A program made the translations under genes and the position numbers. From assembly GCA_963844715.1 (NCBI GenBank), contig CAWJPJ010000007.1:32001-96000 (forward strand): a DNA stretch of 64,000 bases. Direction: 5' to 3'. This stretch comes from an uncultured Phycisphaerales bacterium. Its GTDB lineage: Bacteria > Planctomycetota > Phycisphaerae > Tepidisphaerales > Tepidisphaeraceae. The stretch's first letter is position 1. Every line of letters starts with the position of its first letter. Of the stretch, positions 14,182 to 28,377 are shown piece by piece. A model generated the notes under the pieces. It was not told the origin of the DNA. It saw only the letters and a list, made by a program, of their open reading frames with translations, and did not search any database.

Positions 14182-15011
14182 CTAGGGCCTGTCTGATGAA
14201 TCCAAAATCCTGAAATAGCGACGGATCATGGCGAGCTTGGCCATGGCCTGAAAGTTCACCGCCAGTTTCTCGTAACGCGTGCCCAGGCGGCGATTCTCCT
14301 TCATCCAATTCACGCAACGCTCCACCACGTTCCGTCGGCGATACGCCTTGCGATCAAAGTTCTCCTGCGGCGGCTGATTCGATTTCGCCGGGATCACCGC
14401 TTGGATTCGGTGGCGACGCAGCCATCGCCGCACATTTCCGTAACTGTATCCCTTGTCGCCCGCCAGCCTCCTGGGGCGACGACGGCGGCGACCGATGCGC
14501 ATCGCGTTCATCACCGGCTCCACGTACCGGCTCTCGTGGCATTGGCCGGCGCTGGCCTCGACGGCGAGCGGAACTCCCTGGCCGTCAGTAACCAGGTGGA
14601 GCTTGCTGCCCCACCCGCCTCGGCTGCGGCCCAACGCGTGATCCGCCGGTTCTTCCGGGGCGGTTTTGATTTTCTGGCTCCGGCGGCGGATCGACTGGCT
14701 CGCACATTGGTGCCGTCGATGCACCACAGGTCCCAGTCGATTCGTCCTTGCTTGTCCAACCTCATCTGCAGCCGCTGGAGGATTCGATCAATCGTTCCGT
14801 CCTTTCTCCAGCGGTTGAAGCGGTCGTAGACGCTTTGCCATCTGCCGTAACGTTCGGGCATCTCGCGCCATTCAGCGCCCGAGTGCAGAATCCAGAACAT
14901 GCCGTTGAGCGTGGTGCGGTGGTCGTTCCACTGCCCGCCGCGCTTGCCGTTGCCGGGCAGCAGATCGCCGATCAACTCGTACTGCTCATCCGTGAGCTCA
15001 TAACGTCGCAT
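14182..15011 (-). CDS. IS5-family DDE transposase in two overlapping frames
   Basis: OrfA MRRYELTDEQ...SGAEWREMPERYGRWQSVYDRFNRW...IDGT; OrfB LGRSRGGWGSKLH, AGDKGY, YRRRNVVERC, RRLGTRYEK; frame switch near 14670. Confidence 0.93.
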
Positions 15012-15070
15012 CCGTGACACCTCGTCTGAAAACCGCTATTTATAACCAAAAGCGATTCATCAGACAGGCC
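14186..15070 (-). mobile_element. IS5-family insertion sequence (IS427-group-like), 885 bp
   Basis: 17-bp perfect terminal inverted repeats GGCCTGTCTGATGAATC (14186-14202; 15054-15070) flanked by CTAG on both sides (14182-14185; 15071-15074). Confidence 0.95.
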
Positions 15071-20354: not shown

Positions 20355-21196
20355 CTACGCCACCGCCTGCGGCTTGAACTCCGGCTGCACCGTCACCTGC
20401 ACGCGCGGCGCCATCTCGATCACTTCCTTGGCCAGCACCCGGTAATCGCTCGCCCCGTGGCTTGCCGGTTCATATTGAAAGATCGTCTGCCCGAAGCTCG
20501 GGCACTCGGCGAGTTTGATATTCCGCCGAATCCGGGTGGCGAAGATCTTCGCGTTCGACCACGGCGTGTTCTTGCCGTGCGCGTCGCGGATGAATCCGGA
20601 AAGATCTTCGACGACTTCGGTGCTGAGTTTGGTTTGCGCATCGAACATGGTGAGCACGATGCCGGACACCTTCAAGCGGGGATTCACGCGCCGGCTGACC
20701 AGCGAAACCGTCTCCAGCAGTTTCCCGACCCCTTGCAGCGCCAAAAAGTGCGGCTGCATCGGCACGATCACTTCCTCCGCGCACGCCAGGGCGTTGATGG
20801 TGAGCAACCCCAGCGACGGCGGGCAATCGAGGAGGAGAAAATCAAAATCGTGCTGCGCCGCCTCGATGCGGCGCTTCAGAAGCGTTTGCGCCCCAGAACG
20901 CTGGCCAGTTCGACTTCCGCGCCGGCCAGATCGATGTTGCCGGGAACGATGGCGATGCAATCGCTGATTTTCTGCACCGCCGAAAGAAACGGCGCCTGTT
21001 CCATCAAAACCTGGTAGAGCGACGTTACGTCCGCCGCGCCGGGATCGACGCCGTAATTGATGGTGAGATGCGATTGCGGATCGAGATCGACGAGGCAGAT
21101 TTTTTTTCCCTGCTCGGCTAGCGCGGCGCCGAGATTCGCCGTCGTCGTTGTTTTGCCGACCCCGCCCTTTTGATTCATCAGCGCGATGATGCGCAT
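20355..21196 (-). CDS. ParA/Soj-family ATPase (frameshift near 20885)
   Basis: NQKGGVGKTTT, VDLDPQ, DCPPSLGLLTINAL, IRRNIKLAECPSFG; GGAGG SD upstream; no parB adjacent. Confidence 0.92.
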
Positions 21197-21308: not shown

Positions 21309-21347
21309 AAAAAGAAGAAAGCTTCCGCCGTGGCCGGGAAGCTTTCT
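21309..21347 (-). terminator. Intrinsic terminator
   Basis: 11-bp stem agaaagcttcc/ggaagctttct followed on the minus strand by TCTTTTT. Confidence 0.75.
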
Positions 21348-21359
21348 ATTTCGTTGGGA

Positions 21360-21465
21360 TCCGCGGACCTTATTTTTGGAGCCAAAGGTTTCGCGGAAGA
21401 ATCCGACGGCGGCACATGCGCGAGCATCGCGGACGGTTTTTAGAGTTTGGAGCCACGCGTCCGCG
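21360..21465 (-). ncRNA. Candidate structured 3' UTR or sRNA with twin hairpins
   Basis: Stems 21360-21371/21385-21397 and 21428-21435/21458-21465; both loops carry the same 10-mer (UGGCUCCAAA on the minus strand). Confidence 0.5.
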
Positions 21466-21486
21466 CGCCGCGACAGGTGCGGCGAT

Positions 21487-21552
21487 TTACTTCTTCTTGG
21501 TCGTCTTTTTCCTCTTCGACGACCGCTTTGCGGCTTTCTTCTTCTTTGCCAT
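21487..21552 (-). CDS. 21-aa Lys-rich small basic protein
   Basis: MAKKKKAAKRSSKRKKTTKKK*; AAAGGAGGTGAT SD at 21559-21570, 6 nt from ATG. Confidence 0.75.
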   Translation of the reverse strand: MAKKKKAAKRSSKRKKTTKKK

Positions 21553-21581
21553 GGCGCTATCACCTCCTTTCACAATTGCCA

Positions 21582-21609
21582 AATGTATGTCGCAGGAATC
21601 TCCAGTCAA
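21582..21609 (-). promoter_or_regulatory. Sigma70-type promoter of the small basic protein gene
   Basis: TTGACT-16 nt-TACATT with an A-rich tract upstream. Confidence 0.5.
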
Positions 21610-21699: not shown

Positions 21700-23277
21700 A
21701 TGGCAGTCATTTCAAAACGTCCCTGCGTGATCATCGTTCGCGACGGCTGGGGAAAAAATCCTCATCCGGAATGGAATCGCGCCAACGCGGTTTATCTCGC
21801 GAAACATCCGGTTGCGGATCGAATTATGCAGAAATATCCCGTCACGCTGATTCACACCAGCGGGTTCGACGTCGGTCTTCCCGAGGGAACGATGGGGAAC
21901 AGCGAAGTGGGACACCAGAACATCGGCGCGGGGCGGATCGTGGACCAGGAATCGGTCGCAATCACCAAGCAAATCCGCAACGGACAATTTTTTGCGAATC
22001 CGGCGCTGAATCAGGCAATCGACTCGGCGAAGCTGATGGGCGGCGCGGTGCATTTGTTCGGAATTGTCAGCGACGCCGGCGTGCATGGATTGCTTGAACA
22101 TCTCTACGCGTGCCTGGAACTGTGCAAGCGCAAGGGGCAGGCGCGGGTGTTTTTGCACGCGTTTTCGGACGGTCGCGACACGCCGCCGAGCAGCGGATTG
22201 GGATACGTGCGGGCTATCGAGGAAAAAATGAAATCGATCGGCGTGGGGGCGGTCGCGACGGTGAGCGGAAGATACTGGGCGATGGACCGGGACAACCGGT
22301 GGAACCGCGTGGAAAAGGCGTACCGCGCCATCGTCTTCGGGGAGGGGGAGAAATATTCCTCGGCGACGGCGGCAATTCAGCATTATTACGATCATCCCAC
22401 GTCGCCGAATATGACGGGGGACGAATTCATCACGCCGTCGGTGATTTGCGACGATGGCAAAACGCCGCGCGCGACGGTGAAAAATGGGGACTCGATTATT
22501 TTTTATAATTATCGCGGAGACCGGCCGCGCGAACTCACCAAGGCGTTTGTGATGCCGAAGTTCGAGGGATTCGATCGCGGGCCGAAGCTGGAAGTTTTTT
22601 ATTGCACGATGACGGCGTATGAGCAGAGTTTGCCGGTGCATGTGGCGTATCCGAAGCCGCCGAAGATGAGCAACATCCTGGGTCAGTATGCGAGCGATCT
22701 TGGACTCAAGCAGTTTCGCTGCGCGGAGACGGAGAAGTTTCCGCACGTGACATTTTTCTTCAACGACTATCGGGAGGAGCCGTTTCCGGGGGAGGATCGG
22801 CAGATCATTCCCTCGCCGAAGGATGTGTCGACGTACGACCAGAAGCCGGAGATGAGCGCATACGATGTTTGCGACGAAGTGGTGAAGCGGATCGAATCGC
22901 GGGCGTATGACCTGATCGTGGTGAATTTCGCCAACGGGGACATGGTGGGCCATACGGGCGTGCTCCCGGCGGCGATCAAGGCGGTGGAAATCGTGGATGA
23001 ATGCGTTGGGCGGATCCTGGATGCGCTGAAGAAGACGGACGGCGTGGCGATCGTGCTGGCGGATCACGGGAACTGCGAGCAGATGATCGACCCGGGCACG
23101 GGAGCGCCGCATACGGCCCATACGACCTATGACGTGGAATTGATCGTCGTGGACGACCGGTATGTGGGCAAGAAATTGCGCCAAGGGGGGCGTTTGGCGG
23201 ATGTCGCCCCCACGGCTTTGACGATGATGGGACTGCCGCAACCGGCGGAAATGACGGGTGTGAGCCTGCTTACGTGA
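21700..23277 (+). CDS. gpmI: 2,3-bisphosphoglycerate-independent phosphoglycerate mutase
   Basis: DGWG, MGNSEVGH, DGRDT, GRYWAMDRD, AETEKFPHVTFF, NGDMVGHTG, ADHGN. Confidence 0.97.
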   Translation: MAVISKRPCVIIVRDGWGKNPHPEWNRANAVYLAKHPVADRIMQKYPVTLIHTSGFDVGLPEGTMGNSEVGHQNIGAGRIVDQESVAITKQIRNGQFFANPALNQAIDSAKLMGGAVHLFGIVSDAGVHGLLEHLYACLELCKRKGQARVFLHAFSDGRDTPPSSGLGYVRAIEEKMKSIGVGAVATVSGRYWAMDRDNRWNRVEKAYRAIVFGEGEKYSSATAAIQHYYDHPTSPNMTGDEFITPSVICDDGKTPRATVKNGDSIIFYNYRGDRPRELTKAFVMPKFEGFDRGPKLEVFYCTMTAYEQSLPVHVAYPKPPKMSNILGQYASDLGLKQFRCAETEKFPHVTFFFNDYREEPFPGEDRQIIPSPKDVSTYDQKPEMSAYDVCDEVVKRIESRAYDLIVVNFANGDMVGHTGVLPAAIKAVEIVDECVGRILDALKKTDGVAIVLADHGNCEQMIDPGTGAPHTAHTTYDVELIVVDDRYVGKKLRQGGRLADVAPTALTMMGLPQPAEMTGVSLLT

Positions 23278-27930: not shown

Positions 27931-28377
27931 GTGCCAACTATGAACGCTTCATCGGATGAACGCGGAATGACTGCATTGATCGGGGCTCATCTCGGGGTTC
28001 TGGAACTGGCGGAATTGTCGCTGGGGGGCGATCTGGATTGCTCGCTGGCGGGCGCCGGGTTGCCGGAGGAGATCGAGGACGCCAAGAAGAAGCCGCGCGA
28101 GGAGCCCGAGGAAGAAGGAGAAAAGGGCGGCGGGAGCGAAAAAGAGGAAGATGAGGACGTCGGGTTCGACGACGATGAGGAGGAAGAAGAGGAGGAAGAG
28201 GAAGAGGCCGCGGAAGGGCCGGAAGAGGAGGAGGCCGTCGAAGACGAGGAGTTCGACGAGGAGGACGACGAAGACGAAGATGAAGACGAGGATGACGACG
28301 ACTTCGACAATCCGGATGACGACGACGACTACGATGACGACGATGATGACGAAGACGAGTTCGAAGACGATGAATAG
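27931..28377 (+). CDS. Highly acidic low-complexity protein
   Basis: C-terminal ~80 aa almost all Asp/Glu, encoded by mixed GAA/GAG/GAC/GAT codons in one frame; start uncertain. Confidence 0.65.
   Translation: MPTMNASSDERGMTALIGAHLGVLELAELSLGGDLDCSLAGAGLPEEIEDAKKKPREEPEEEGEKGGGSEKEEDEDVGFDDDEEEEEEEEEEAAEGPEEEEAVEDEEFDEEDDEDEDEDEDDDDFDNPDDDDDYDDDDDDEDEFEDDE

Follow-up and report, generated by a model that had tools for sequence, protein, structure and literature searches.

Mycobacterial HupB carries a lysine-rich tail, and tails on planctomycete HU proteins were reportedly described by Yee et al. in 2011. The Csr/Rsm systems use RNAs as protein decoys, with the same word present in the mRNAs and in the small RNA. 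Hc2 is described as a protein of basic pentapeptide repeats, variable in number, that binds DNA and has a role in nucleoid compaction (PMC3088116). PVC nucleoids are described as condensed, with the condensing factors named as an open question in 2011 (PMC3177640), and a condensed nucleoid is also described for a Phycisphaerae isolate (PMC10945688). Two known systems of regulation resemble parts of what follows. IhtA, a hairpin-loop small RNA of Chlamydia, pairs across the AUG of hctA (PMC4355289). In Bacteroidota, a Shine-Dalgarno (SD) energy below -13 kcal/mol marks rpsU (PMC9976891), the gene for bS21, which is autoregulated in Flavobacterium johnsoniae (PMC9976891; PMC10931766).

Here we describe a gene of 21 codons in a window of 64,000 nucleotides (the whole stretch of DNA analyzed) from an uncultured member of the Tepidisphaeraceae. 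Judging from its sequence and that of its relatives, it probably encodes a free-standing polycation of the histone H1 type, a putative DNA binder; that is, a 21-residue peptide, half of it lysine, that would bind DNA by charge and help to compact the nucleoid. A preliminary description of this DNA had reported a 21-residue peptide with 13 lysines and arginines and no acidic residue. This is what we find on the minus strand, where the reading frame runs from an ATG at 21552-21550 to a stop codon at 21489-21487 and encodes 11 lysines, two arginines and no acidic residue. What the peptide has in common with Hc2 (HctB, PF07382) and the Burkholderia H1-like proteins (NF038053) is a pattern of basic repeats with small spacers, a variable number of repeats, and occurrence in the PVC superphylum. 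It differs from both in length, with 15 to 47 residues in the family compared to about 195 positions in the models, and in its repeat, which consists mostly of two lysines and two small residues. The features of the locus are collected in Table 1.

Table 1. Features of the peptide gene, its surroundings and related genes. Positions are those of the window; entries beginning with G000 are positions in the source genome.
Feature	Position	Strand	Remarks
21-codon ORF, Lys/Arg/Ala/Ser/Thr peptide	21487..21552	-	Translation; homologues; codon pattern
Shine-Dalgarno sequence, 13 nt	21559..21571	-	Complement of the genome's own 16S 3' end
Sigma-70-type promoter	21582..21609	-	-35 at 21609-21604, -10 at 21587-21582, spacer 16
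3' UTR hairpin 1	21429..21464	-	K1 and a copy of W in the loop
3' UTR hairpin 2	21361..21396	-	W in the loop at 21383-21378
Intrinsic terminator	21309..21347	-	11-bp stem, U-rich tail, 10-nt loop with K3
parA promoter-like site	21259-21231	-	Own site upstream of parA
ParA-family ATPase	20355..21196	-	ATG 21196; frameshift near 20880
gpmI (BPG-independent phosphoglycerate mutase)	21700..23277	+	Divergent neighbor
Metatranscriptome contig	21352..21536		Wholly inside the predicted transcript
Stand-alone RNA gene, about 65 nt	G000:C6:1086860-1086960 (L285:2361-2460)	+	Promoter, hairpin, U-run
HU orthologue	G000:C7:287835-288140; loci L466-L511		SD unusually well kept

Ribosome-binding site, promoter and conservation of the gene

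The SD was correctly described as the complement of the 16S 3' end, but its length had been given as 12 nt, while the genome's own 16S gene yields 13 nt. The 12-mer first reported occurs only twice in the 4.55 Mb of the genome, counting both strands: in this SD and in the 16S gene. The duplex energy of the SD is -19.2 kcal/mol. Among 1,147 gene starts, a conservatively chosen sample from the same genome, the longest SD match is 9 nt and the best energy is -15.7 kcal/mol. Energies below -8.4 kcal/mol occur at 12.7% of these starts and in 7.3% of control windows, and strong SDs are therefore rare in this genome. Short SD cores, on the other hand, are enriched about fourfold at starts (147 versus 35 for 2,317 starts of the same genome), which indicates that the anti-SD is not generally hidden.

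An exceptionally long SD on one gene for a small basic protein recalls rpsU (bS21) of Flavobacterium johnsoniae, and the peptide might by this analogy be an unrecognized ribosomal component whose synthesis, like that of bS21 there, is governed by how much free anti-SD is available. The energy of the SD, well inside the class below -13 in a genome poor in strong SDs, is consistent with this. We nevertheless consider it very unlikely, given that the enrichment of short cores at starts does not fit a hidden anti-SD and that a tenfold range in the length of simple repeats is ill-suited to a defined pocket. Unlike bS21, the product here is a low-complexity repeat, and the source genome uses short SDs. 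A comparison of the peptide, as a possible 30S platform protein, with Pfam, NCBIfam and the solved structures of the PDB gave no match, which for a query of 21 residues is weak evidence. Of the observations made here, the extreme SD is the only one that speaks, weakly, for the ribosome-associated peptide proposed in the preliminary description.

The promoter matches at 9 of 12 positions, which by itself is at the level of chance (one found, with a mean of 1.0 in shuffled sequences). That the gene has its own promoter, as had been claimed, is nonetheless suggested by relatives in which the site is visibly kept: the layout can be seen in the 58 family loci described below, although it is cut off in one of them, and in 45 held-out loci. 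Transcription would start near 21575, placing the SD within a few bases of the inferred 5' end. With a near-consensus promoter and a maximal SD so close to that end, the peptide would be expected to be made in large amounts.

A pattern combining the SD with the start of the gene was found in 54 of 141 family genomes, though the pattern misses some, and homologues of 15 to 26 residues with the same promoter and SD layout are present at 58 distinct loci. As an independent route to the gene, we used a covariance model of its 3' untranslated region (UTR), built on 46 sequences. The model matches 120 of the 141 family genomes at E <= 1.2e-8, essentially once in each, with one further weak match. 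Through this RNA model alone we retrieved 46 loci that the ORF pattern had missed. In 45 of these held-out loci a lysine-rich ORF of 16 to 47 codons follows an SD of 9 to 14 nt, and the single exception sits at the end of a contig. Conservation of SD and frame in relatives, whose absence would have counted against the gene according to the preliminary description, is therefore observed, and the gene is a real, conserved, stand-alone small gene, found in planctomycetes from soils and wetlands. The family tallies for the UTR, the small RNA, csrA and the longer complement discussed below include one unpublished genome (G062), counted once in each; none of its sequence is used, and no claim depends on it.

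The composition of the peptide is held while its codons vary. Across the 58 loci, which comprise 1,269 residues, there are 651 lysines, 233 alanines, 228 threonines and 66 serines, only two acidic residues and no aromatic ones. All four alanine codons are used, and lysine is encoded by AAG 575 times and by AAA 76 times. A constant composition with varying synonymous codons indicates selection on composition rather than on a fold.

Across the class, the same start pattern was found in 64 of 251 genomes, compared to three control matches. The class-wide products are Lys/Ala repeats of 18 to 118 residues, except for one of 46 entries, which is an unrelated gene of 300 codons. A scan of all species genomes gave at least 120 loci. 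Among the matches listed, the ORFs encode 11 to 129 residues; locus ends truncate three of the ORFs in these 120 loci, and about five others have non-repeat tails. The shortest, of 11 to 13 residues, come from several phyla. By record title, these 120 loci comprise 95 from Planctomycetota, eight from Rokubacteria/Methylomirabilia, five from Omnitrophota, four from Patescibacteria and eight others, with no Bacillota among them. Records with the full layout are titled Tepidisphaeraceae or Tepidisphaerales, and include the cultured Fontivita pretiosa B-254 (L155). One Rokubacteria record (L141) has two tandem lysine-rich micro-ORFs, each with its own long SD. Gene callers miss such genes: an exact look-up of the peptide and three long homologues among 15 billion predicted proteins returned no match.

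Identity of the peptide

Among the candidates put forward in the preliminary description, an H1- or protamine-like nucleoid peptide appears to be the best supported, through the length-variable Lys/Ala/Thr repeats and through fusions of such repeats to HU and to a histone fold. Two HU proteins (L434 and L436; PF00216) have the lysine-rich repeat as an N-terminal tail of 30 to 40 residues. In a planctomycete record (L211:721-936), the same long SD precedes a gene in which a lysine-rich tail is joined to a histone fold of the bacterial type (PDB 9QT0, E 6.7e-18). These proteins resemble the known lysine-rich HU tails and bacterial histone folds (PDB 9QT0, 8CMP and 8FVX), while the repeat described here is encoded by a free-standing gene, and the HU protein of the source genome has no lysine-rich tail. 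Because lysine-rich low complexity can arise by convergence, the long repeats and the fusions show a shared use rather than shared descent; the homologue searches also preselected the same first residues.

Profile searches do not place the peptide in a described family. No Pfam or NCBIfam model scores above its cut-off for the 21 residues. The 118-residue homologue reaches 20.6 bits with Pfam HC2, for which the cut-off is 40 bits, and 18.1 bits with NCBIfam hist_H1_lk_Burk, for which it is 80 bits, and five other long homologues have no match to the H1-like models. Membership in Hc2 or the H1-like family (PF07382, NF038053) is thus not indicated by profile score, whereas the repeat pattern is the same: small residues, aliphatic or with a hydroxyl group, separate the basic ones, and the number of repeats varies. 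By analogy, then, the peptide may work like Hc2 without being a member of that family by profile. The reading of the repeat as an H1-like tail draws together its variable length, the fusions to HU and to the histone fold, the likeness to Hc2, and the condensed nucleoids of PVC bacteria.

A polycation need not act on DNA. The peptide might be a general binder of polyanions such as RNA, bulk ribosomes or polyphosphate, similar to an encoded polyamine, and not a chromatin protein. The limitation of conservation to charge and small residues would agree with such a role, as would the members of only 11 to 13 residues in several phyla. We regard this as improbable, in view of the fusion of the repeat to two DNA-binding folds, the frequent adjacency of parA, and the presence of a word from the UTR in HU leaders (see below). 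For an H1-like polycation, the main ligand would be DNA rather than RNA or polyphosphate. The gene is in any case a candidate for the condensing factors of PVC nucleoids that can be synthesized, and a cultured relative (L155) has the full layout. In the literature listings covered, which include few subscription journals, we found no paper on the peptide, the UTR or the small RNA.

The 3' UTR, the small RNA and the word W

The downstream terminator of the preliminary description is present, but it is not adjacent to the gene: it lies about 140 nt past the stop codon. The intervening DNA encodes a conserved, structured 3' UTR, which that description lacked and which, with the terminator, has three hairpins. 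The whole transcript folds with a z-score of -2.2. In the alignment of 46 UTR sequences, 90.2% of cells are compatible with pairing, and both partners vary in 17 of 30 pairs; compensatory pairs make up 7 of 7 in hairpin 1, 3 of 4 in hairpin 2 and 7 of 13 in the terminator. This covariation exceeds that of all 500 shuffles and of all slid controls, with the structure having been derived from the same 46 sequences. Rfam has no family that matches the UTR at its gathering score, the best being a terminator-like ctRNA at 25.5 bits versus the required 50.

Two of the loops hold hexamers that are complementary to one another: K1 (21457-21452, in hairpin 1) can pair with K3 (21334-21329, in the terminator). 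A kissing contact between these loops is plausible as a predicted pairing without covariation, since 98.9% of cells pair in the 46 sequences and none shows a compensatory change. The heptamer of the terminator loop occurs in 37 of the 120 loci listed from the species scan, 22 of which lack the octamer of hairpin 1, and in none of the 25 listed records not titled Planctomycetota. From this distribution, the heptamer is apparently older than the rest of the UTR. It does not represent a generic loop used throughout the genome, which contains only one such terminator.

The loop of hairpin 2 carries a six-base word, W, that is invariant in the 46 aligned sequences and present in all 45 held-out UTRs. 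A second copy, in hairpin 1 at 21454-21449, overlaps K1, and the hairpin-1 octamer that contains it is complete in 21 of the 45 held-out UTRs. The same octamer forms the tip of the hairpin in a separate small RNA of about 65 nt, which consists of a promoter, 20 to 30 variable bases, one hairpin and a U-run. The pattern for this RNA was found in 109 of the 141 family genomes, nearly always once, compared to seven control matches, and 9 of its 15 stem pairs show compensatory change in 29 aligned copies. Its gene is often flanked by galU-like or sugar-kinase genes on one side and by a PolX-like gene on the other. A search of five of its loci against Rfam gave no matches. Outside the family, the pattern occurs in 18 of 212 genomes, which is not above the reversed-pattern control, and the ten such matches that we inspected are not the same hairpin-terminator.

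The UTR and the small RNA tend to be found together. Both are present in 102 family genomes and neither in 14, while 18 have the UTR only and seven the small RNA only (Fisher p 3e-6, a value that, like all p-values here, is overstated because related genomes are not independent).

These findings raise the question of which product of the gene matters. RNA might be the main one and the peptide secondary; the maximal SD and the short ORF would then load ribosomes in order to shield the 3' UTR, itself a decoy or regulatory RNA. Conservation of the UTR extends to 120 of 141 genomes and is accompanied by covariation, its loop word is common to a non-coding RNA with which it co-occurs, the SD lies close to the inferred 5' end, and the single RNA contig found (see below) is mostly over the UTR. 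We judge this reading unlikely all the same, because synonymous codons vary under a tightly constrained amino-acid composition, and because the gene is retained outside the family, where its 3' regions are unrelated or very short and its repeats reach 129 residues. The ribosome-loading leader of the preliminary description has some plausibility, given that the 3' UTR is conserved as RNA, but selection acts on the composition of the protein. With the peptide as an H1-like polycation, the structured UTR likely carries a regulatory signal that is common to HU messages and to the separate small RNA.

The evidence for HU comes from the leaders of its orthologues. W is present in 12 of 30 HU leaders, about 30 to 100 nt before the start codon, compared to 2.8% of 2,373 leaders genome-wide. 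In control leaders it occurs in 1 of 43 for gpmI, 0 of 40 for parA, 0 of 20 for csrA and 0 of 9 for IHF-type genes, and its reverse complement is in none of the 30 HU leaders. W was also the most enriched hexamer in the first 21 HU leaders parsed. Only 2 of the 12 leaders with W have it in a predicted loop, 18 of the 30 are without W, and the HU leader of the source genome has the first five bases of W, twice. W can also be found where both the UTR and the small RNA are missing: two such genomes have it in the leaders of tailed HU genes and of long H1-like genes (L432, L437, L434 and L436), but it is absent from three further long H1-like genes of genomes of this kind (L433, L435 and L438).

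Searches for further carriers of W added little. Before lysine-rich starts across the class, W was found in 17 of 401 genomes versus 11 control matches. In nine class-wide loci that we inspected, the only new lysine-rich micro-gene is L450, the second such gene of its genome (G048), with W in its leader. In the source genome, W is present in 43 of 2,766 leaders compared to 20 to 28 for three control words, and no further member of a regulon emerged; in five genomes examined for a wider regulon there were 12 matches to W and 10 to controls.

The small RNA and the mRNAs carry W in the same orientation and so cannot pair with each other through it. Such an arrangement is, instead, that of a binding site for a protein together with a decoy RNA. 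By analogy we tentatively propose that W is such a site: a putative sequence-specific protein would bind W, and the RNA of about 65 nt would act as its decoy. A somewhat more speculative extension is a chromatin regulon of the Tepidisphaeraceae, in which the putative protein might read W in the peptide message and in HU leaders and be titrated by the decoy RNA, tuning the compaction of the nucleoid. If this is true, the peptide would be a long-sought condensing factor of planctomycete nucleoids. The regulatory link between chromatin genes formed by W, the small RNA and the HU leaders is directly testable. The RNA layer as a whole (UTR, small RNA and link to HU) is previously undescribed and could prove to be categorically new.

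The resemblance to Csr/Rsm lies in a single word that mRNAs share, on the same strand, with a small RNA that has a gene to itself, complete with promoter and terminator. Unlike the Csr/Rsm RNAs, which have several loops with the CsrA consensus, the small RNA here has a single hairpin with a single site, and W is not the CsrA consensus. The source genome has two csrA genes (G000:C5:110044, with a paralogue on C7).

These genes bear on a different reading of W, as the seed of antisense pairing to ribosome-binding sites, first of all that of csrA, so that the UTR and the small RNA would be base-pairing repressors. The exact complement of W is found in 49 of 66 csrA-like start sites of the family, with seven more compatible through wobble pairs (hand count), compared to 24 of 430 SD cores of the source genome. 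However, outside the family, where matches to the small RNA do not exceed the control, 48 of 109 sites also have this csrA sequence (hand count), and it is explained in cis as the stem that closes a CsrA-type loop. A sequence that is common without the small RNA and closes a hairpin in cis does not provide independent evidence for a seed. Upstream of start codons in 41 genomes, a longer complement was no commoner than the control (150 of 327 matches listed), and the antisense reading leaves the sense-strand W of HU leaders unexplained. We therefore consider it doubtful and retain the protein-binding site as our working proposal. In the csrA leaders themselves (L309-L348), the SD is covered class-wide by a hairpin whose loop is of the CsrA type, and more such hairpins lie upstream, which suggests autoregulation.

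The pair IhtA and hctA offers another comparison, in that a hairpin-loop small RNA is tied to an H1-like gene and the terminator loop of the peptide gene has partial complementarity to the start region. However, the small RNA described here is in the same sense as the word in the mRNA, and its loop is not complementary across the start codon. Closure of the terminator loop on the start codon in the manner of IhtA was rejected: the A of the AUG is mismatched and the flanking bases are not kept class-wide, whereas the loop fits hairpin 1 perfectly.

Neighboring genes and transcript support

The preliminary description placed the gene directly upstream of a ParA-family gene. parA is indeed downstream, but it begins about 290 nt past the stop codon, behind the terminator and its own promoter-like site. 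The arrangement is found in 40 of the 58 family loci, compared to 6 of 41 loci of other families, and gpmI is the divergent neighbor in 44 of 58 family loci but in none of the 41 others. In the source genome, parA is split by the frameshift into two AAA_31 pieces, possibly an assembly error; other genes of the same genome also look frameshifted.

A metatranscriptome contig of 184 nt, more than 99% alike, matches the predicted transcript, mostly over the 3' UTR, with no match on the other 1.5 kb compared. As support for expression this is weak, since it comes from one run of one study and from contigs only. The contig is without one base at 21411 (depth under 5), which may be a strain difference or an error.

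Three further observations concern ORFs outside the locus. A pair of overlapping ORFs at 14182-15020 of the window, on the minus strand, probably encodes a transposase, which from the translation would be IS5-family-like. In the source genome, an ORF of 24 codons rich in arginine and lysine, with a clear SD (G000:C4:116588-116663, minus strand), resembles the bS22/AURKAIP1 type of small ribosomal protein and is a candidate for it. Finally, about 6 kb from the polycation gene, an ORF at 27931-28377 of the window (plus strand) encodes an extremely Asp/Glu-rich protein, a possible polyanion partner or chaperone of the polycation.
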